Assembly: GCA_964507075.1 (NCBI GenBank)
Contig: CAZDOL010000023.1
Location: forward strand, 1 to 5,161
DNA from: an uncultured Gammaproteobacteria bacterium
Lineage (GTDB): Bacteria > Patescibacteriota > Patescibacteriia > UBA2591 > UBA6264
DNA length: 5,161 nucleotides
Direction: 5' to 3'
The notes below the pieces were generated by a model that saw only the letters and a list, made by a program, of their open reading frames with translations, made no database searches and was not told the origin of the DNA. This document shows, in pieces, positions 1 through 5,161 of this stretch (positions are counted from its first letter, which is position 1; each line of letters begins with the position of its first letter). A program made the translations under genes and the position numbers.

Positions 1-925
1 TACGTTCCCAAAAATTAAAATCTTCAGTAATAATTTTTATATCTATTCCTTGTTTAGCTTTTTTAATAATTGCTTGGGAGATATTTTTGTCAGTAGCTTG
101 CCAGATAATTATTTCAATATTTTTTTGAGCGCTTTCTATTAAATCAATAATTTTTTGATTGATTGAGTTATTTTGAAATCCAGGGCTAAACCAAACATCT
201 AAGAAGCAATCATTATATGTAATATTTTTTAACCATGGCTTATAGTTTTTGTTCCGCAATTTTTTAGTTCCGTTAGTATTTTGTTTTAATAAATCAAATT
301 CAAAACCGTATGCCTGAATGATTTCAGAATCTGTGGTTACAAACAAAAAGCTGGGGTCAAAAGCTTCTTGTAGTGTGGTCCAATTTAATGAGCCAGTAAT
401 AAGTTTTTGTTGAGGCGTTCCTCTGTCTATAATAACAAATTTATGATGCATATTTGGATTTGATTTTGTAGCGCTTTTGCCTGGGTCAATTCTTTTAATA
501 TTTTCAGGCAAATCTGCAAAAACAATATTGTGTTGTTTGCTTTTATCAATATCTAAAACAAGGATTATTTGAACGCCTTTTTCATTTGCCTTATATAATT
601 TATCTCTTAATATTTCTAAGTTAAACGAATACATTGCTATTTCAATGCTTTTTTCAGCATTGTCTATGGCCTTACTAATAGTATTTATAAATTGATTAGT
701 TTGAAATTCATTATTAAAATAAACCGCGCCTTCCATATTTCTATCTACTTTAATTTTTTGAGAAGATATATAGTCAGGCAGATTTGATTCTAAAAGCCGT
801 AAAGATGTTAATTTATTAGACAAAAAAATAAGAACCATTGCAAAGCAAATAAAATAGGCGATTATCTTAATAATCTTTTTTTTATATCTTTTATATTTTC
901 TCAATTTTATCCTCAGAAATGACAT
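1..925 (-). CDS. Phospholipase D (HKD) superfamily protein with a basic N-terminus and a single membrane anchor; 3' end cut by the window edge
   Basis: Not in the supplied ORF track because it runs off the window. Hand translation of the minus strand from ATG 925..923 gives MSFLRIKLRKYKRYKKKIIKIIAYFICFAMVLIFLSNKLTSLRLLE..., open to position 1 (308 codons + 1 nt), with an in-frame TAA just upstream of the ATG. The HKD motif 'HHKFVIIDRGTPQQKLITGSLNW' is encoded at ~383..448. It is preceded by the PLD-type 'AIDNAEKSIEIAMYSFN...EKGVQIILVLD'. A second PLD-type repeat starts at ~198 and runs leftwards ('VWFSPG...IIDLIESAQKNIEIIIWQATD...GIDIKIITED'). Alternative starts are TTG 904 and ATG 838, but ATG 838 would cut the hydrophobic helix. 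Confidence 0.75.
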   Translation of the reverse strand, partial: MSFLRIKLRKYKRYKKKIIKIIAYFICFAMVLIFLSNKLTSLRLLESNLPDYISSQKIKVDRNMEGAVYFNNEFQTNQFINTISKAIDNAEKSIEIAMYSFNLEILRDKLYKANEKGVQIILVLDIDKSKQHNIVFADLPENIKRIDPGKSATKSNPNMHHKFVIIDRGTPQQKLITGSLNWTTLQEAFDPSFLFVTTDSEIIQAYGFEFDLLKQNTNGTKKLRNKNYKPWLKNITYNDCFLDVWFSPGFQNNSINQKIIDLIESAQKNIEIIIWQATDKNISQAIIKKAKQGIDIKIITEDFNFWER

Positions 926-2630
926 ATTTTTGATTATAAGTGATTAAAGAATTTTCCTTAGTGGCTAATAAAATTATTATAGAATCAGATAATTTTTCAG
1001 CCATAATTTTTAAAATTTCATTTATTCTTTTTTGGTTTAAATCAACCCACAGATTGTCAATCACAATTATAGCTGGTTTATTTACCAAGCAATAAGCTGC
1101 TTCTAATGCAAATAAATGAACTGGGTTTAATGTTATGGTTTGGCAATTCTCAGCAGTGAATTTTCTAAAAGAAAGAATGAAATGGAGCGGCGGGCATTGA
1201 GATATAACTTGAAAAACTTTTTCAATGTCTGATTGGTTGATGTTTTCTCTATTTTTGCCTGTTAATATTTCTCCAACATTTTTTTCAGAAGTTAGCTGGG
1301 GTTCTATAAAATAAGCATTACGGAATTTTGTTTGCCAATCATTATATAAATAACGTTTTTCGTTCGCTTTAACTATCCATGCCTGATTATTAAAACGTCC
1401 CATACAAGATAATAAATATCCTAAATGCGTTTTTCCAACGCAACTTTTTCCTGAAATTAAAACTCGGTCTTTAGAATTGAATTCTAAGTTGATGTTTTTG
1501 ATATATTTTCCCAACCAGAATAATTTTGTTTTTTTTGTTTTAAAAGTGATTGAAGATATTTTTTTAATTATATCTTGACGACTTTTGTCTTTTTGTGGCT
1601 CGGGCAAAGAAAGAATAAGCCCTAACCTCGCAGGCAGAATAAAGAGTCCTATTTTTAAACTGGTATAGAACAATCTTATTAAGTAAATAAAAACAATTCC
1701 AGAAATCAGCAGGTTGTCAACTTGGATTTTGAGAAAAAAGTCAGGAGTATATATTCGCATTATATAAGAAAGTCCGACTACTAAAATCAAGATACCAAAA
1801 ATAATTCTATTGCCAAAAAGAAGCCAAATTTTTCTTCTAATTCTAAAGTGCGTATCTAATTTAACTAATTCGTCTAAGGTTTGGAGATTTTCTTTTTCTA
1901 ATTTGTGTTTTTGGATAAAGGGGAGTTCATATAAAGAAGAGGTGATGTGCTTGATGATTTTGGAATAAAGTGTTGTTTCTTTTGTGACATAGTGTTTGGC
2001 AATATAGTAACCAATAAGGGCGAGTATGATATTAACGGGTATGGCTAGCAAAATAATTATTAGCAGAGTGCTGTTAATAAAAGCGCTAATAATCAGCAAA
2101 CCAAGAACATATAAAGCCCATTGCATTAAGCCAATAACGCTGTTGTCCAGCCCCATTTGCAACAAAGGAAGATGGTAGGATATTTTGGCTATTAAGCTGG
2201 CTTTATTCTCAGAAGTTACTTTGTGGAAGGGCTTATTGGTAAAAATTTTAATCCATTTCCTGCGCAAATCATTTATGAGATAGATAACTAAACTTTTCCC
2301 TATTTTAAGTTCCCAAAAGGCAATAATAATATAAATTATTACGCCTCCTATTAAAACGCAGAGGGCTATGGTCATTTGTTTCCATTGCAGAAGAACGCTT
2401 GTTTTGAATAAATGACTACGAGCAAATAAGGGCAAAATTACTTCCAGAAGAATTTGGCAAAAAAGAAGAGATAAGAAAATAATAATTTCTTTTTTGTGGC
2501 CACGAGCAAATGATTTCAAATATTTGAGATGAAATTTTTCCAATTTTAATGGTCTATTTGCTTGCCTAATCTCTGCTTTTTGTTGATACAAATAAATTTG
2601 CGATTTTTTTTCTTCCATGATGGACATCAA
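891..2630 (-). CDS. ABC type-1-exporter-like fused transmembrane domain + nucleotide-binding domain protein; the NBD is degenerate
   Basis: ORF track, 579 aa. About six hydrophobic helices lie in aa ~48-340 (e.g. IIIFLSLLFCQILLEVILPLF, MTIALCVLIGGVIIYIIIAF, VIGLMQWALYVLGLLIISAF, LLIIILLAIPVNIILALIGYYI, IIFGILILVVGLSYI, ISGIVFIYLIRLFY). There is a long cytoplasmic-loop pattern 'DLRRKWIKIFTNKPFHKV...SLIAKISYHLPLLQ', typical of ABC_membrane domains. In the C-terminal NBD, Walker A 'GKSCVGKT' (1428..1451) and a Q-loop-like 'EPQ' are present. The signature position reads 'LNPVH' rather than LSGGQ (1116..1130). Walker B reads 'IIVIDN', so the catalytic Glu is Asn (1053..1058). The H-loop position reads 'LLATKE', with no His. 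The track's first codon at 2630 is TTG; ATGs follow at 2627 and 2618, so the exact start is uncertain. Confidence 0.8.
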   Translation of the reverse strand: MMSIMEEKKSQIYLYQQKAEIRQANRPLKLEKFHLKYLKSFARGHKKEIIIFLSLLFCQILLEVILPLFARSHLFKTSVLLQWKQMTIALCVLIGGVIIYIIIAFWELKIGKSLVIYLINDLRRKWIKIFTNKPFHKVTSENKASLIAKISYHLPLLQMGLDNSVIGLMQWALYVLGLLIISAFINSTLLIIILLAIPVNIILALIGYYIAKHYVTKETTLYSKIIKHITSSLYELPFIQKHKLEKENLQTLDELVKLDTHFRIRRKIWLLFGNRIIFGILILVVGLSYIMRIYTPDFFLKIQVDNLLISGIVFIYLIRLFYTSLKIGLFILPARLGLILSLPEPQKDKSRQDIIKKISSITFKTKKTKLFWLGKYIKNINLEFNSKDRVLISGKSCVGKTHLGYLLSCMGRFNNQAWIVKANEKRYLYNDWQTKFRNAYFIEPQLTSEKNVGEILTGKNRENINQSDIEKVFQVISQCPPLHFILSFRKFTAENCQTITLNPVHLFALEAAYCLVNKPAIIVIDNLWVDLNQKRINEILKIMAEKLSDSIIILLATKENSLITYNQKYVISEDKIEKI

Positions 2631-3828
2631 GATAATATTTATATAAAGAAGGTATTTTTAAGTGTTTTAATTTTTCTTTGAGCAGGCGTTGATTGTGGGG
2701 GGAGTACTTGCCAAAAAAATATTTAGTAATAATGCGCATGAATTTTTCAGACAATTTTTTTATTTGCTGGTCATTGTTTACTAATATTTTTTGAGAAATG
2801 ATTTGGAGAAATTGGTTGTTTATATTGTCTTCTTTTTGAAAAAGTGTTTTGCGCAAGTACTTGATTTTTTGATAATTATTTCGTGGTTTATGTCCAAGCA
2901 AAGTAGTTCTCCAATAACTGATAGTTTTTTTAATGAAATTATCTTCTAAGCTGATTATTTTGTTATTAAAATTATATCCTAAAAAATTAAACTCCTGATT
3001 GGTTGCGATTAGCTTACTTTTTTCTTTTTTGATTTTTAATTTTAGTTTTTTTATCTCCTGGAGCGTGTAATGAAATAAGGCCTCTAATTTTTCTTTATTT
3101 TTATCCATTAATATTATATCATCACCAATCCTTCGGTAAAGAGACACTTTTTTTCCGAGATACTTATCTAAATCGTTGAGATATAAATTAGCGAATAAAG
3201 CTATTAAGGGAACGCCCTGCACAACGCCAATTTTGGGGCGATAAAGTTTTTCGTCTTTATATACAGCATTATAAATAAATAATTTTAAAAGTTCTATTAC
3301 TGTGTCTGGCAAGCCAATTTCTTGGAGCTTTTTAATTAATATTTTTTGGTCAATGTAGTTTGAGTAATTTGTTAAGTCCAATATTAGGGCATTGTCTTGG
3401 TCATAATAGCGTTGATATCTCCTAACAACACTGCGCCCAGCATAATAGCTGGGGTGAGAGGAGCGATACGAGAATAAAAAGGGGGAATAATTGGCTTCAA
3501 AAATTGGTTCAATGATTTGATAAATAGCTTGCGCTTTAATTCGGTCTTTGATGGTATAAATATATATATCGCGCAATGAACCGTCTTTTTTGGGAATATA
3601 GTGGCAGAGAGCAGGGCTAATTGCTTTTTTTTGCTTGAGTTCAATTTGGAGTTCTGAAATTATTTTGTCTGCTTTGTGAGCAATGTTGTCAATCTTAGAG
3701 CCATCTATGCCTGTATATCTGGAAATCCTGGCCCCTTCTTCAAATTGTTTTATCAGGGCTAAATAGGCCTTTTCTATGTTGGTGGTATTTAATATTTGAT
3801 TGTATAAGTCGTTTTTTTCAGCAGGCAT
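2566..3828 (-). CDS. Reverse transcriptase, free-standing, group-II-intron-like (RT plus thumb/X-like region only)
   Basis: ORF track, 420 aa. Motifs read from the translation: RT0-like 'YTGIDGSKI'; motif 1 'HYIPKKDGSLRDI'; motif 2 'IKDRIKAQAIYQIIEPIFE'; 2a 'FSYRSSHPSYYAGRS'; motif 3/A 'ALILDLTNYSNYID' (D151); motif 4/B 'GVVQGVPLIALFANLYLNDLD'; motif 5/C 'YRRIGDDIILM' (D236-D237 at 3118..3123); motif 6 'LKIKKEKSKL'; motif 7 'FNFLGYNF'. A ~130-aa Lys-rich C-terminal region follows, with no endonuclease or other recognisable domain. An in-frame TAA one codon upstream of ATG 3828 fixes the start. Confidence 0.9.
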   Translation of the reverse strand: MPAEKNDLYNQILNTTNIEKAYLALIKQFEEGARISRYTGIDGSKIDNIAHKADKIISELQIELKQKKAISPALCHYIPKKDGSLRDIYIYTIKDRIKAQAIYQIIEPIFEANYSPFLFSYRSSHPSYYAGRSVVRRYQRYYDQDNALILDLTNYSNYIDQKILIKKLQEIGLPDTVIELLKLFIYNAVYKDEKLYRPKIGVVQGVPLIALFANLYLNDLDKYLGKKVSLYRRIGDDIILMDKNKEKLEALFHYTLQEIKKLKLKIKKEKSKLIATNQEFNFLGYNFNNKIISLEDNFIKKTISYWRTTLLGHKPRNNYQKIKYLRKTLFQKEDNINNQFLQIISQKILVNNDQQIKKLSEKFMRIITKYFFGKYSPHNQRLLKEKLKHLKIPSLYKYYLDVHHGRKKIANLFVSTKSRD

Positions 3829-3865
3829 ATTTTAAAAAAATAAAAACCCTTTGTTTGAGGTTTTT
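3829..3865 (-). terminator. Weak terminator- or attenuator-like hairpin plus U-run immediately upstream of the RT start codon
   Basis: The minus-strand RNA reads 'aaaaacc-tcaaacaaag-ggttttt' (7 bp, only 2 G-C; plus 3842..3848 pairs with 3859..3865), followed by 'atttttttaaaat' and then ATG 3828. The layout is terminator-like, but the stem is very A-U rich. Confidence 0.25.
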
Positions 3866-3900
3866 GATATTAAAAAAAATAAAAATATTGTTTCCATAAC

Positions 3901-3926
3901 ATAGTATGTGCCAAACGGCATACTAT
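3901..3926 (-). other. Local stem-loop within the leader
   Basis: 'atagta-tg-tgcc aaac ggca tactat': tgcc/ggca (4 bp) plus atagta/tactat (6 bp), with a 2-nt bulge and a 4-nt loop. It abuts the 3' half of the long-range helix (3894..3901). This is the best-supported single structure in the spacer. Confidence 0.5.
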
Positions 3927-4049
3927 TAATTAAATCAATTTGAGACGCCCCTGGGTTGTCATTATTCTTTCGCTTATTTAAGCTGGTGTTAGACAGCAAG
4001 TTAACAAATAAGCCTCAGAATTTTTAACACCTCTATTTATGAGATAGAG

Positions 4050-4079
4050 TTGTTATGGTTTAGTAATATATGTTATAAT
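4050..4079 (+). promoter_or_regulatory. Candidate divergent promoter for the plus-strand gene
   Basis: On the plus strand: -35 'TTGTTA' (4050..4055), an 18-nt spacer, then an extended -10 'TGtTATAAT' (4071..4079). The two -10 hexamers on opposite strands overlap at 4078..4079, inside the near-palindrome TGTTATAATTATAGCA (4071..4086). Confidence 0.4.
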
Positions 4080-4107
4080 TATAGCACATATTATTGAGAA
4101 GTGTTAA
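4078..4107 (-). promoter_or_regulatory. Candidate sigma70-type promoter for the leader/RT operon
   Basis: On the minus strand: -35 'TTAACA' (4107..4102), an 18-nt spacer, then an extended -10 'TGcTATAAT' (4086..4078). Predicted TSS is ~4069..4071. Confidence 0.45.
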
Positions 4108-4127
4108 TTATTTATCCACAATTGTAT

Positions 4128-5161
4128 ATGTTTCTTAAGAAATTCAAAAAACAGGAACATAATTTTAGTCCAGCTTTTGTTATTTTGGTTATAATAGTAG
4201 CTGGATTTTTTATTTATGAAAAAACTAGCCATGAACCTGTGGTTTCTTTTCCCGTTGAGCCAGAAAGGGTTGAGCAGCAGGCGATTAGAGAGATTATTGA
4301 ACCAGAGCAGGAGATAACAAAAGAGCCAGAAAAAAATATTCCCCAACCAACTCAACGTAAATTAGATAATGGACTTTTTACAGCTACCTTTACAGATGGG
4401 TTTTCCAGTCAGGCATGGTTAGATGTTGGACAAACTGATTTGTATTTTGATTGGACTAGCACAAACTTGCTTTTTCCGATTTCTATGACCACGCAGGAAA
4501 TTGGGATACAAGATTTTCCGGGGTTAACTCAACATCCTGAGGAAGAAAAAAATGATGACATTTTGGCTTTACCGCAGATAGCTGAATTGGTGGCTGAGAA
4601 GAATCCCAAACAAGTAGCCGTTGTTAGAGCTCAGGGGCCAAATACATATATGATTGGATTAGCGCAAGAAAAAGCGTTTGAAATATGGGAATATAATTCA
4701 AAAAGCAAAGAGATTAAATTGTTGTTGGGAAAAACAGCGGAATATTCTGGACACCTTGCTTTATTGTCACGTGATAACAGTGTTTTTGTTTTATGGTCTA
4801 GTTATTTTACTTTAGCTTATGAAATAGATAATAATAGAGCGACAAAGGATTTAACCAATGATTTTGGCTGGAGGGTTTCTTCTGATAATGCCGTTAAACT
4901 TTATGAAATTAATGATTTTATTTATATTATCAATGAGGACGGTTTAATTATTCGTTATAATGATGAGATAAGCGTAAGGATTGACCAAGAATTTTGGTTT
5001 ACATATCAACCAGAATTTTTAAAAATAGCAGGCGATTATTTAATAGCAAAGGTGCCAAATGGGGGAGAGAAAATTTATCAATTTGAGGACAGGGGTTTTA
5101 ATTTACAAGGAACGAGGCAGGTTGTTTCTAAAAAAGTGAATTTTTCAGTTAAAAATGTTGG
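4128..5161 (+). CDS. Hypothetical membrane-anchored protein (N-terminal TM helix, acidic linker, uncharacterised domain); 3' end cut by the window edge
   Basis: Not in the ORF track because there is no stop in the window. Hand translation from ATG 4128 gives MFLKKFKKQEHNFSPAFVILVIIVAGFFIYEKTSHEPVVSFPVEPERVEQQAIREIIEPEQEITKEPEKNIPQPTQRKLDNGLFTATFTDGFSSQAWLDVGQTDLYFDW..., open through 5161 (344 codons + 2 nt). An in-frame TGA lies at 4095..4097. Alternative starts are GTG 4101 and TTG 4122. I recognise no catalytic motif. Confidence 0.7.
   Translation, partial: MFLKKFKKQEHNFSPAFVILVIIVAGFFIYEKTSHEPVVSFPVEPERVEQQAIREIIEPEQEITKEPEKNIPQPTQRKLDNGLFTATFTDGFSSQAWLDVGQTDLYFDWTSTNLLFPISMTTQEIGIQDFPGLTQHPEEEKNDDILALPQIAELVAEKNPKQVAVVRAQGPNTYMIGLAQEKAFEIWEYNSKSKEIKLLLGKTAEYSGHLALLSRDNSVFVLWSSYFTLAYEIDNNRATKDLTNDFGWRVSSDNAVKLYEINDFIYIINEDGLIIRYNDEISVRIDQEFWFTYQPEFLKIAGDYLIAKVPNGGEKIYQFEDRGFNLQGTRQVVSKKVNFSVKNV

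Follow-up and report, generated by a model that had tools for sequence, protein, structure and literature searches.

To our knowledge, every characterised free-standing reverse transcriptase (RT) operon with a conserved adjacent structured RNA, that is, retrons, DRT2, DRT9 and DRT10, uses this RNA as a partner. A further association of RT and RNA is found in mobile group II introns, whose RTs bind intron domain IVa. The free-standing G2L enzymes, for example G2L4, are domesticated group-II-type RTs without intron RNA; G2L4 has a YIDD active site and an RT3a plug, and acts alone in DNA repair. The gene neighbourhoods published for G2L enzymes consist of queuosine-gene clusters and defence islands, in which neither the protein pair nor the RNA described below was found (PMC8632793). 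DRT10 (UG17, formerly G2L3) consists of a structured ncRNA, an RT and a membrane effector of the SLATT type, for which activation by cDNA accumulation has been proposed. In retrons, the msr-msd RNA upstream of the RT is closed by the a1/a2 inverted repeats and the effectors include membrane proteins as well as ATPase and nuclease pairs, the latter being used by type I-A retrons (PMC11974896).

On the membrane side, TM287/288, TmrAB and BmrCD are heterodimeric exporters with one degenerate ATP site. FtsEX together with EnvC, PcsB or CwlO is an ABC system that passes a conformational change to extracytoplasmic hydrolases. Among the nucleases of the phospholipase D (PLD) superfamily, Nuc, NucT and Zucchini (MitoPLD) are single-HKD enzymes and PLD3/PLD4 are two-domain membrane-anchored exonucleases; PLD3/PLD4 and Zucchini are tethered by an N-terminal helix.

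The cassette described here joins a promoter of its own, a structured ncRNA of ~180-330 nt and the genes for an RT, an ABC-exporter-like and a PLD protein; it probably represents a novel device for conflict or defence that is built around an RT. The preliminary description of the locus had not recognised this combination from any described system. Indeed, PADLOC, NCBIfam, Pfam and Rfam models gave nothing past generic RT, ABC or PLD matches, and a limited literature search retrieved neither a published description of the four-part combination nor a degenerate-ABC or FtsEX-like system coupled to an RT.

Layout of the cassette

The window, meaning the whole stretch of 5,161 nucleotides that was analysed, carries on its minus strand, in this order, the promoter, the structured RNA and the RT, ABC-exporter-like and (incomplete) PLD genes.

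4078..4107, minus strand: cassette promoter, -35 TTAACA at 4107-4102, 18-nt spacer, extended -10 TG-c-TATAAT at 4086-4078
3894..4074, minus strand: structured non-coding RNA (covariance model, MFE fold, compensatory pairs)
4058-4052 (CCAUAAC) with 3900-3894 (GUUAUGG), minus strand: P1 closing helix of the RNA
4049-4031, minus strand: P2 hairpin of the RNA
4021-3964, minus strand: P3 long helix, with inner hairpin GCUG 3997-3994 / CAGC 3985-3982 and a CUAA-containing loop
about 3945-3936, minus strand: conserved single-stranded CUCAAAUUGA of the RNA
3926-3901, minus strand: P5 hairpin of the RNA, apex CCGUUUGG
3834..3865, minus strand: terminator-like hairpin AAAAACC...GGUUUUU followed by a U-run, between RNA and RT start codon, present in the MFE fold
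2566..3828, minus strand: reverse transcriptase, 420 aa (RVT_1 E 1.7e-20; PDB profile search; AF2/Foldseek)
891..2630, minus strand: ABC-exporter-like membrane protein, 575-579 aa (family profile against PDB; AF2/Foldseek)
1..925, minus strand: membrane-anchored PLD-superfamily protein, N-terminal 308 aa (ATG 925; cut by the window edge)
4128-5161, plus strand: divergent neighbour gene, outside the operon

The operon proposed in the preliminary description stands; the region 4128-5161 is a divergent plus-strand gene and lies outside it. The three same-strand ORFs of the operon without intergenic space are present on the minus strand, with overlaps of 53 nt between RT and ABC-like genes and of 35 nt between the ABC-like stop (891) and the PLD ORF. 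Since the ABC-like protein may start at 2630 (longest ORF) or at 2627 or 2618 (gene callers), the RT stop lies 53-65 nt inside this ORF, the range given before; the ATG at 2618, a family-invariant Met, is the likely start. The overlaps are conserved among the family loci (60 genome loci scanned) and, as judged from sequence, couple the genes translationally.

The one promoter candidate noted earlier turned out to be strong (4107-4078, minus strand), with a consensus score of 11/12, TG present and TATAAT at 4083-4078. It is overlapped by a palindrome (4064-4093) in which a candidate promoter of the divergent neighbour gene, on the plus strand, is also located. Across the family, 35/43 loci have a hexamer that agrees with TATAAT in at least five of its six positions no more than 40 nt upstream of the P1 5' arm, compared to 53/187 control windows. 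More than 90 independent loci share gene order, overlaps and leader, and the leader helices covary, so the features first observed in the window exceed chance.

A conserved structured RNA upstream of the reverse transcriptase

The leader (4074-3829) is non-coding and forms several helices, with an MFE of -48.5 kcal/mol (z = -3.0 against shuffles), and the ~240-nt multi-helix element anticipated for this region is a conserved, covarying RNA. In the window its length is ~180-240 nt, that is, 4074-3894 plus the terminator-like hairpin down to 3834. A covariance model built from 14 distant relatives (R1) matches 3914-4074 on the minus strand with E 4.5e-5, and the MFE fold recovers the RNA helices. 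Compensatory pairs make up 17/37 in the alignment of the window clade (A8) and 41/56 in that of the family (A2), where 94.7% of the cells are paired against 32-48% in slid controls and none of 500 shuffles reached the observed values. Searching Rfam with the upstream RNA matched no family.

Nearly every family RT is preceded by an ORF-free gap of 250-330 nt, and in the window as well as in two independent sets of loci R1 matches nowhere but directly before the RT, on the same strand as this gene. The element measures 131-334 nt (median 245) and contains conserved single-stranded motifs, with an A-rich AAAAC directly after the 5' arm of the closing helix. This helix spans 16-36 bp (median 25) in ~45 loci with sequences unrelated between loci; even three paralogous cassettes of one MAG (L041, L049, L052) differ in P1. 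Among helix mismatches G.U outnumbers A.C by 73 to 20 (p = 3e-8), which identifies the RT strand as the one from which the RNA is read. In 30/43 loci, 0-8 nt separate the 3' arm of P1 from the RT ATG, and tandem duplication of the element is observed. A simple terminator scan made no call for the window hairpin at 3834..3865, which is too weak for the scan criteria; stronger hairpins of other sequence, each followed by a T-run, sit at the same position in L007, L067, L068, L008, L130 and L131 and likewise in L017, L018, L021, L023 and L026.

The three proteins and their relatives

The RT comprises fingers/palm, thumb and D domain and is devoid of an endonuclease domain. Its closest matches in a PDB profile search are the group II intron RTs 7uim (E. 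rectale IIC, E 7e-36) and 6ar1 (GsI-IIC RT, E 1e-34), and its AF2 model (pLDDT 90) aligns in Foldseek to full-length GsI-IIC RT with a TM of 0.73-0.77. Profile search and fold thus confirm the group-II-intron-like RT of the preliminary description, these mobile enzymes being the best full-length match in both sequence and fold across RT0-7, thumb and D domain. Besides the catalytic residues D151, D236 and D237, also R233 and G235 are 100% conserved in 178 family RTs. However, the active-site motif is RRIGDD (RR[VI]GDD in the family) instead of YADD, no intron ribozyme was detected in Rfam/covariance searches, and the RT is bound into an operon that also encodes two membrane proteins. The RNA beside its start codon nevertheless recalls the binding of domain IVa by group II RTs. 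Furthermore, where group II RTs have their sugar-contacting Phe (F143; PMC12337344), 93% of the family carry Ser, Thr or Ala; in the window the residue is Ser156.

By a loose definition the cassette RT is a G2L-type enzyme (PMC8632793), yet G2L4 matches it weakly (E 4e-9). DRT10 resembles the cassette in its parts, but the UG17 HMM scores 88.6 bits on this RT whereas generic and group II RT models reach 136-148 bits, the RNA is different, and the effectors are an ABC-exporter-like protein and an outward-facing PLD rather than SLATT. With retrons the cassette shares its geometry of promoter, RNA closed by a long terminal helix, RT and effectors. In contrast to them, its RT is not retron-type (Ec86 only E 1e-6), no branching-G context is evident in the RNA, its closing helix far exceeds theirs in length (median 25 bp), and the ATPase has a membrane exporter fold instead of being an SMC-like soluble protein.

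The ABC-exporter-like protein consists of an N-terminal cytoplasmic helix, a six-helix type-IV exporter transmembrane domain and a degenerate nucleotide-binding domain. While Pfam ABC_membrane remains under threshold (18 bits), the family profile finds P-gp, ABCB4, MsbA, TM287/288 and PCAT1 in the PDB (E 1e-18 to 1e-12), and the AF2 model (pLDDT 80) has full-length Foldseek matches to BmrCD, MsbA, McjD, PCAT1 and TmrAB. The protein retains Walker A (GKSCVGKT) and the Asp of Walker B but has Asn in place of the catalytic Glu and lacks the LSGGQ signature, Q-loop and H-loop, as is visible in the profile alignment to PDB exporters. Profile, fold and motif alignment hence agree with the earlier reading of a 6-TM exporter whose hydrolysis motifs are gone. 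Unlike the heterodimers TM287/288, TmrAB and BmrCD, whose fold it matches, the presumed homodimer would have both sites without catalytic Glu, signature and H-loop; with the Q-loop missing from both halves as well, ATP-driven transport is unlikely, though the protein might still transport something. FtsEX likewise combines a membrane ABC protein with an outward-facing hydrolase, but it has a MacB-type fold and an active ATPase. The family is small and discrete: 91 representatives (clusters at about 50% identity) with E <= 1e-30 emerge from 1.84 billion, followed by a sharp drop.

The PLD protein, 518-525 aa in full on longer contigs, starts with a poly-Lys/Arg tail followed by one transmembrane helix, a first PLDc_2 domain and the start of a second. 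All 56 of 56 family members have a single N-terminal transmembrane helix with a net charge of ~+5 before and ~+1 after it, from which the catalytic domains are predicted to face outward into the extracytoplasmic space. The anchoring and the two domains had been foreseen correctly, the second HKD had not: the first motif is H160-x-K162-(x)4-D167, and the second, beyond the window edge, is a conserved H356-x-H358-(x)4-D363. The predicted outward orientation and this non-canonical motif had no place in the earlier expectations. The family profile points to Zucchini/MitoPLD, NucT and Nuc, which are also the best PDB and NCBIfam (NucT) matches. In contrast to these single-HKD enzymes, the protein unites two domains in a single chain, its family-invariant second motif is HxH(x)4D in place of HxK(x)4D, and its gene invariably accompanies those of the ABC-like protein and the RT; the N-terminal tether is shared with PLD3/PLD4 and Zucchini.

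Linkage and distribution

A scan starting from the RT yielded 60 genome loci, 56 of which hold RT, ABC-like and PLD genes, the remaining four ending at contig ends; three of the 56 complete loci show divergent gene orientation. RT homologues down to 29% identity retain the ABC-like gene, the PLD gene and the upstream spacer, in line with the synteny proposed beforehand. Starting from the PLD instead, 53 metagenome loci were found, and ABC-like and RT genes are present in 35/35 of those with enough upstream DNA. A widespread ABC/PLD pair without RT, raised in the preliminary description as a counter-case, was therefore not seen, and no such pair exists among the uncut loci of the 60 genome and 53 metagenome loci scanned.

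The cassette occurs almost exclusively in about a hundred ultra-small Patescibacteria and has spread into Longimicrobiales and Omnitrophota, in whose MAGs the RNA is GC-adapted. Some small genomes harbour two or three divergent copies, only ~40% identical within a genome, and the viral contigs of IMG/VR contain one locus. The cassette is accessory, as seen from empty sites: relatives in which the flanking 423-aa gene is 62-71% identical join a giant LamG gene straight to this gene, and one carries an IS200-like transposase between the two, the cassette being absent. In the window the cassette adjoins AbiEii/DUF6922, with MNT/HEPN and Fic genes close by. Of the 148 proteins encoded nearest to the cassettes, few correspond to defence models, the majority being housekeeping, cupredoxin-like, pilin or giant surface proteins, hence there is no general defence-island signal and the enrichment once expected was not borne out. 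In several lineages the cassette lies amid genes for type-IV pilin-like, giant surface and cupredoxin-like secreted proteins.

Proposed role and alternatives

We interpret the locus, with a probability of roughly one half, as an undescribed, tightly linked accessory cassette in which a retron/DRT-like RT-RNA unit controls a membrane effector pair against invaders. The group-II-intron-derived RT would bind the RNA encoded just upstream of its start codon and make a cytoplasmic nucleic-acid product, with the RNA as scaffold and/or template. The cytoplasmic domains of the ABC-like homodimer, binding ATP without hydrolysing it, would read the state of the RT-RNA(-product) complex, and the dimer would serve the adjacent outward-facing Nuc/Zucchini-type PLD hydrolase as trans-membrane switch, scaffold or conduit. 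Nucleic-acid or membrane damage at the envelope could then block or abort the invader, be it phage or incoming DNA. The binding of the RNA by the RT, the formation of a product, the path of the signal and a role in defence are inferred by analogy with retrons and DRT systems. Several points speak against this model: a general defence-island signal is missing, the ABC-like protein might still transport something, the predicted outward PLD would be an odd place for an effector on intracellular phage DNA, and the upstream RNA could be only a cis-regulatory leader.

One alternative is envelope nucleic-acid traffic rather than immunity, which would fit the episymbiotic lifestyle of Patescibacteria and which we consider rather unlikely. 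Either the outward PLD would process external DNA/RNA while the ABC-like protein and RT handle material inside (uptake or salvage), or an RT-made product would leave via the ABC-like dimer and be trimmed or attached by the PLD. The Nuc/NucT/Zucchini-like, predicted extracytoplasmic PLD, the full exporter fold, the pilin-like, giant surface and cupredoxin-like neighbours, the missing defence-island context and the divergent copies in small genomes are consistent with such traffic. However, motif loss in both homodimer halves disfavours ATP-driven transport, a rare and patchy cassette with empty sites argues against a core lifestyle function, and the pilin and surface neighbours, found in related lineages only, may stem from common ancestry. 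A purely cis-acting leader that serves the RT neither as substrate nor as template appears decidedly improbable. Such a leader could be bound by the RT for autoregulation, in the manner of domain IVa, or be a riboswitch/attenuator, leaving the RT to act on other nucleic acids, e.g. in repair as G2L4. The P1 3' arm would mask the ribosome-binding region, an intrinsic-terminator-like hairpin precedes the ATG in several clades including that of the window, and tandem duplication is known for riboswitches. Yet the element is large with conserved single-stranded motifs, has its own promoter at the helix base and diverges along with each paralogous RT, and the characterised RT operons with adjacent structured RNA use it as a partner.

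Compared to the proposed RT-RNA unit with its membrane effectors, a mobile retroelement, whether a decayed group II intron or a new cargo-bearing retrotransposon, is very unlikely. The RT is nearest to those of mobile group II introns, presence and absence alternate at a syntenic site with an IS200-like gene at that spot in one relative, and some genomes have several copies; these copies are only ~40% identical, however, and the RT is missing the endonuclease domain. Neither group II intron RNA domains (Rfam/covariance search) nor terminal repeats were found, the ABC gene overlapping the RT stop leaves no room for intron domains V and VI, and viral contigs contain almost none. Hardly credible is the idea, put forward in the preliminary description as a counter-case, of a housekeeping lipid-export and cardiolipin-synthase pair with the RT as an unrelated neighbour. 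It can draw on weak MsbA and CydD similarity and on a weak cardiolipin synthase match, but this (TIGR04265) reaches 17.6 bits against a cutoff of 290, and RT co-occurrence in both search directions already contradicts it. The family is moreover rare and accessory, its ABC hydrolysis motifs are lost, and the PLD falls among nucleases, alongside Nuc, NucT and Zucchini.

Layout and linkage of the cassette

The upstream structured RNA and the genes for the reverse transcriptase (RT), the ABC-like protein and the PLD protein are one unit. In the window they lie beside a divergent gene, as follows.

4128-5161, plus strand: divergent gene for a membrane-anchored protein (423 aa), without Pfam match
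4107-4078, minus strand: strong promoter candidate, TTAACA-18-TGcTATAAT, 11/12 matches
3829-4127: stretch without a long ORF
3828..2566, minus strand: RT ORF, 420 aa
2630..891, minus strand: ABC-like ORF, with a family-invariant Met at 2618
925 to beyond the window start, minus strand: third ORF, PLD

The overlaps and the single cassette promoter candidate described in the preliminary description are confirmed: the RT ORF ends 53-65 nt into the ABC-like ORF, which in turn ends 35 nt into the PLD ORF, and the minus-strand promoter match is strong. On longer contigs with an identical RT the PLD protein measures 518-525 aa. No tRNA, Rfam match or array-like repeat was found in the window.

The same linkage is observed across a wide range of relatives. 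A scan with the RT alignment over one genome per species yielded 60 loci with RT identities from 76% down to 29%, whose hosts are nearly all Patescibacteria MAGs and also include one Longimicrobiales, one Omnitrophota and one Flavobacteriaceae bin. ABC-like and PLD genes are retained in 56 of these loci, and the other four stop at a contig edge. Usually the two genes come after the RT on its own strand, with overlapping ORFs; in three loci the arrangement is divergent across the non-coding region. The converse scan, which searched metagenome contigs with the PLD alignment including its HxH motif, returned 53 loci. All 35 with sufficient upstream DNA carry the ABC-like and RT genes, the remaining 18 being cut at a contig end. 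The opposite picture, an ABC-like and PLD pair that is common without an RT, was thus not seen. An exhaustive profile search with the ABC-like protein gave 91 representative clusters at E <= 1e-30 among 1.84 billion, beyond which scores fall sharply to those of ordinary exporters, so that the family is small and discrete. Several single MAGs hold two or three cassettes that are ~40% identical.

A covarying RNA upstream of the reverse transcriptase

In nearly every locus the RT is preceded by an ORF-free gap of 250-330 nt, regardless of which gene lies upstream, and these gaps share DNA similarity even where the RTs are only ~45% identical. Each is enclosed by a long inverted repeat whose sequence varies from locus to locus. 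A simple helix finder recovered this closing helix in about 45 loci with a length of 16-36 bp (median 25); the enclosed element comprises 131-334 nt, and the 3' arm of the helix ends 0-8 nt from the RT ATG in 30/43 loci. The consensus obtained by aligning 14 elements has five parts.

Part 1: closing helix P1
Part 2: small hairpin P2
Part 3: long helix P3 with an inner CCGCUAAUGCCGG-type hairpin
Part 4: variable region, followed by conserved single-stranded GACUCAUUGUCA
Part 5: hairpin P5 with the apex CCGUUAAGG

In this alignment 94.7% of cells are paired, compared with 32-48% when partners are slid. Compensatory changes occur in 41/56 pairs, and 0/500 shuffles reach the observed values. When helices are sought by Watson-Crick pairs alone, their mismatches are more often G.U than A.C (73 vs 20, p = 3e-8), and the structure is therefore read as RNA from the RT strand. 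R1, a covariance model of this RNA built from 14 distant relatives, matches only directly upstream of RT genes and on the RT strand, be it in the genome set, an independent metagenome set or the window (3914-4074(-), E 4.5e-5). P1 is short in the window's clade (CCAUAAC/GUUAUGG, 7-8 bp in the window). An alignment of eight sequences from this clade recovers P1, P2, P3 and P5 with 17/37 pairs compensatory, and a single-sequence fold of the window RNA gives the same helices. What had been recognized as a leader with multiple helices thus both folds and covaries.

A TATAAT-like box is located at most 40 nt upstream of P1 in 35/43 loci vs 28% of control windows. Some clades, the window's included, have a terminator-type covarying hairpin between P1 and the RT ATG; the window's own version is weak, and a simple terminator scan did not call it. 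R1 misses the most divergent RNA types, for which the closing helix alone is seen (L041, L049, L052, L055-L057 and L025; L numbers denote related loci gathered by the scans, with coordinates running within each locus). Searches of Rfam gave no match at E <= 1 in the window or in L064 9300-10100, and none at the gathering score in seven whole loci.

The RNA is duplicated in tandem upstream of the RT in L016 (903-1521), L064 (9375-9996), L084 (2330-2937), L088 (1643-2243) and L009 (2585-3320). The copies in the first four are 81-89% identical and each scores >200 bits with R1; the duplication in L009 is a blastn match only. On a smaller scale, the variable region of the L013 ncRNA contains a 33-nt tandem duplication in perfect register that is 97% identical (9853-9918). 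L054 has, ~9 kb downstream of the cassette (18903-19003), 103 nt that match the 5' part of its own ncRNA at 83% identity; they may be an orphan or second ncRNA copy. An 18-nt palindrome in the window (4064-4093) overlaps the -10 box. On the plus strand, a candidate promoter for the 423-aa gene (TTGTTA 4050-4055, TATAAT 4074-4079, 10/12 matches, with TG) also overlaps the minus-strand -10 box and has its -35 box inside the P1/P2 region of the RNA. Because these candidate promoters overlap, the divergent transcription units may interfere.

A group II intron-type reverse transcriptase with an altered active site

The RT matches RVT_1 of Pfam, and an RT domain is the only domain found in the 420-aa protein. 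Against the group II RT/maturase model TIGR04416 it scores 148 bits, under the equivalog cutoff of 300. When the family profile was searched against the PDB, group II intron RTs came out best (7uim, E 7e-36; 6ar1, E 1e-34), with G2L4, DRT2 and retron Ec86 far weaker. An AlphaFold model (pLDDT 90) superimposes in Foldseek on the full-length GsI-IIC RT with a TM-score of 0.73-0.77 over 415-439 columns, and the RT therefore has thumb and D domains and is without an endonuclease domain. Profile and structure together place RT0-7, thumb (X) and D domains, the architecture of a group II RT/maturase, in this protein.

In 178 sequences of the family, of which PKM91132.1 is a member, D151, R233, G235, D236 and D237 are invariant. 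In 178/178 the catalytic motif (residues 232-237) reads RR[VI]GDD and not YADD. A second peculiarity concerns the position that contacts the sugar. In HIV RT, an aromatic residue that contacts the sugar excludes ribonucleotides. In the cassette RTs, the position aligned with the second Phe of DLEKFF (codon 156 in the window, 3363-3365) is Ser, Thr or Ala in 166/178 sequences. This Phe corresponds to F143 of GsI-IIC, F150 of G2L4 and a Tyr of HIV-1 RT, and is in contact with the incoming nucleotide's sugar (PMC12337344). Taken together, the substitution and the RR[VI]GDD motif suggest, at the level of sequence, an altered sugar or substrate selectivity. A few RT homologues carry a weak precomputed Pfam hit to RdRP_1.

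A membrane pair: exporter fold without hydrolysis motifs and a PLD predicted to face outward

The ABC-like protein scores below threshold against ABC_membrane of Pfam and does not match ABC_tran. Its family profile finds P-glycoprotein, ABCB4, MsbA, TM287/288, PCAT1 and BmrA. An AF2 model (pLDDT 80), for which the input was an alignment of database homologues, has full-length Foldseek matches to BmrCD, MsbA, McjD, PCAT1 and TmrAB. Six long TM helices and the C-terminal NBD fold of a type-IV (ABCB-like) exporter are present; the catalytically competent NBD of such an exporter is not. Walker A keeps its Gly and Lys in at least 90% of members, and Walker B its Asp in all. Asn stands in place of the catalytic Glu in at least 90%, and the LSGGQ signature, Q-loop Gln and H-loop His are absent from the family consensus. 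The term degenerate exporter was therefore well chosen: the exporter fold is kept and the hydrolysis motifs are lost.

The PLD protein contains two PLDc_2 domains, and its nearest solved relatives in the PDB are Zucchini/MitoPLD, NucT and Nuc. The Nuc/Zucchini reference has HxK(x)4D(x)6G(S/T)xN in each lobe. Motif 1 of the PLD has invariant H160, K162 and D167. In motif 2, which lies beyond the window edge (L002 5302-5325), His takes the place of Lys, giving H356-x-H358-(x)4-D363 without variation in the family. The earlier designation as a two-HKD PLD accordingly stands for motif 1 and needs correction for motif 2. In 56/56 family members a single N-terminal TM helix sits behind a Lys/Arg-rich tail, with a net charge of ~+5 before the helix and ~+1 after it; by the positive-inside rule, the catalytic domains are therefore predicted to be placed outside the membrane.

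A role as a cardiolipin synthase was rejected, as TIGR04265 gives 17.6 bits vs a cutoff of 290. This score, together with the synteny with the RT in both directions, also rejects the pair as housekeeping lipid genes.

PLD proteins of the window's lineage have a C-terminal extension of ~110 aa in which Ser, Thr and Val abound (L002 5500-5814, residues ~420-525). Most family members are 400-420 aa long and are without it.

Comparison with known reverse transcriptase systems

How does the cassette relate to the RT systems described so far? Given the ancestry of the RT, a mobile group II intron comes to mind, and it was rejected: no ribozyme domains I-VI were found with Rfam Intron_gpII and related models, and the next gene overlaps the RT stop. 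Group II intron RTs have YADD where the cassette RT has RR[VI]GDD. G2L4 differs as well, with YIDD and an RT3a plug insertion compared with [VI]GDD here, and its chains 9d4s and 9d5x align only at E 4e-9 over residues 145-305. A survey of G2L neighbourhoods found queuosine clusters and defence islands, and the cassette operon is not among them (PMC8632793). Retrons offer a likeness in their ncRNA, which lies upstream of the RT and is closed by terminal inverted repeats (a1/a2), as is the cassette RNA. A retron is further defined by its own type of RT and by 2'-5' branched msDNA primed from a conserved G. Unlike in the RNA, similarity in the RT is weak (Ec86, E 1e-6), and no retron RT model of PADLOC is among the best 25 of 26 hits.

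In PADLOC the RT scores best against a generic RT model (136.5 bits), then against UG26 (99.6 bits), RT-Cas1 and UG17 (88.6 bits). An assignment to the UG/Abi DRT systems (UG17/DRT10, UG26) was rejected, since the UG26 and UG17 scores lie below both the generic and the group II values. UG17 is partnered by SLATT, whereas the cassette has no SLATT gene and has ABC-like and PLD partners instead. As a concept, DRT10 comes closest, with its ncRNA and RT working together with a SLATT membrane protein. A diversity-generating retroelement (DGR) was discarded because there is no template/variable repeat pair, the leader sharing no repeat with the rest of the locus except for the leader duplications; at motif 4 the RT is of the QG type seen in group II RTs, unlike in a DGR. 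A CRISPR-linked RT was likewise discarded, with the RT domain standing alone and no array in the window; no cas family is among the 25 most frequent of the 55 PADLOC families matched by 148 neighbour proteins. A phage-borne element was rejected, the RT occurring on only one IMG/VR contig.

For known defence systems, PADLOC gives only a generic RT, weak UG26/UG17, a DrmC-like PLD and marginal mad8. None of the models in PADLOC, Pfam, NCBIfam or Rfam covers the combination, and a limited literature search, including a search by accession, found no description of it. This agrees with the initial proposal of a candidate undescribed RT-based system.

Genomic context and spread

The order of genes around the window is a ChlI-like ATPase, a giant DUF2341/LamG gene, the cassette (PLD, ABC-like, RT, RNA), the 423-aa gene, DUF6922/AbiEii, a 933-aa gene and Fic. 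Relatives exist in which a homologue of the 423-aa protein (62% or 71% identical) follows the LamG gene directly. The two genes are 72 nt apart in one of them, and in another an IS200-like transposase gene occupies the site. Because of these empty sites, the cassette (~5.3 kb) is considered accessory. The AbiE pair and MNT/HEPN pairs are also found near the cassette-free site. The variable region holds an AbiEii/DUF6922 pair, MNT/HEPN-like pairs and Fic, as well as NYN-domain genes and an IS200-like transposase in L124. The pairs are located as follows.

L121 11292-12195: AbiEii/DUF6922, adjoining the window's divergent gene
L126 367-1366 and L128 862-1861: NTP_transf_2 and HEPN
L126 9763-11064 and L127 9210-10511: DUF6922/AbiEii and HEPN

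In these Patescibacteria the surroundings of the cassette can be seen as a small island of genes of the toxin-antitoxin type.

A complete cassette also occurs outside the Patescibacteria, in a GC-rich genome on a Longimicrobiales contig of 2.96 Mb (L025 9770-14355). Its closing helix of 27 bp is GC-rich too, TGCTCTTCCAGAGTTGTGCTGACGGCA. Both features indicate a horizontal transfer followed by long residence.

Possible function

We favour a role in conflict or defence. Five observations speak for it: a patchy distribution, empty sites in related genomes, transfer between phyla, divergence of paralogues that each have an RNA of their own, and conservation of the catalytic residues of the polymerase. 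In addition, retrons and DRT systems are similarly composed, with an RT, a structured RNA encoded in cis, and effectors. The neighbourhood does not support this role. Among the 148 nearest neighbour proteins, matches to defence models are scarce, so that the suggested enrichment in defence islands is not borne out; most Pfam hits are housekeeping (RNase HII, Fpg, FolD, ClpP, sigma factors), and cupredoxin-like, pilin-like and giant surface proteins are also present. There are two main rivals: the cassette might serve nucleic-acid traffic across the envelope, tied to an episymbiotic lifestyle, or the upstream RNA might be purely cis-regulatory.

Under a conflict or defence role, the membrane pair of ABC-like protein and PLD would be controlled by the RT-RNA complex or its product. 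NBDs that are predicted to bind ATP and not to hydrolyse it would suit a switch, not a pump. With the PLD predicted to face outward, the ABC-like dimer might pass a signal or form a conduit across the membrane. A bolder version, which we regard as improbable, holds that the RT is no longer an ordinary DNA-maker and uses its partner RNA as a template for RNA or a mixed polymer, since GDD replaces ADD and Ser/Thr replaces the aromatic residue at the sugar contact. The product or the RT-RNA complex would then be passed to the non-hydrolysing exporter and the outward PLD, making a trans-envelope export or signalling machine, based on nucleic acid and specific to episymbiotic ultra-small bacteria, without counterpart among known RT systems.

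In recent years, operons of an RT, an ncRNA and effectors have revealed unexpected mechanisms, such as retron msDNA, gene synthesis by DRT2, poly-dA by DRT9 and repeats by DRT10. Among these operons with a domesticated RT, we rate the RNA family and the effector pair as new and the polymerase active site as unusual. The cassette would represent a further branch, distinct in all its parts: the RT comes from the group II intron lineage and its active site is altered, the RNA, of ~250 nt and strongly covarying, forms a new family, and the effector pair, unseen with any RT, consists of a non-hydrolysing ABC exporter fold and an outward-facing PLD. It raises the general question of how reverse transcription in the cytoplasm could be coupled to an activity outside the membrane. 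As few conflict systems have been characterized in Patescibacteria, it also provides a testable handle on their biology. If the sugar-gate substitution changes substrate choice, the RT may be of biotechnological interest.

A conserved protein next to the cassette

In one sub-clade, a conserved protein of ~197 aa is encoded 48-119 nt after the PLD gene on the same strand in 14/15 loci (for example L013 14189-14791); in the remaining locus, L032, its gene is found upstream of the cassette. The protein carries an N-terminal TM helix and repeated NDYxxW motifs and matches nothing in Pfam; next in order are cupredoxin-like proteins. The ~197-aa protein may be a fifth component of this lineage or reflect no more than conserved synteny.
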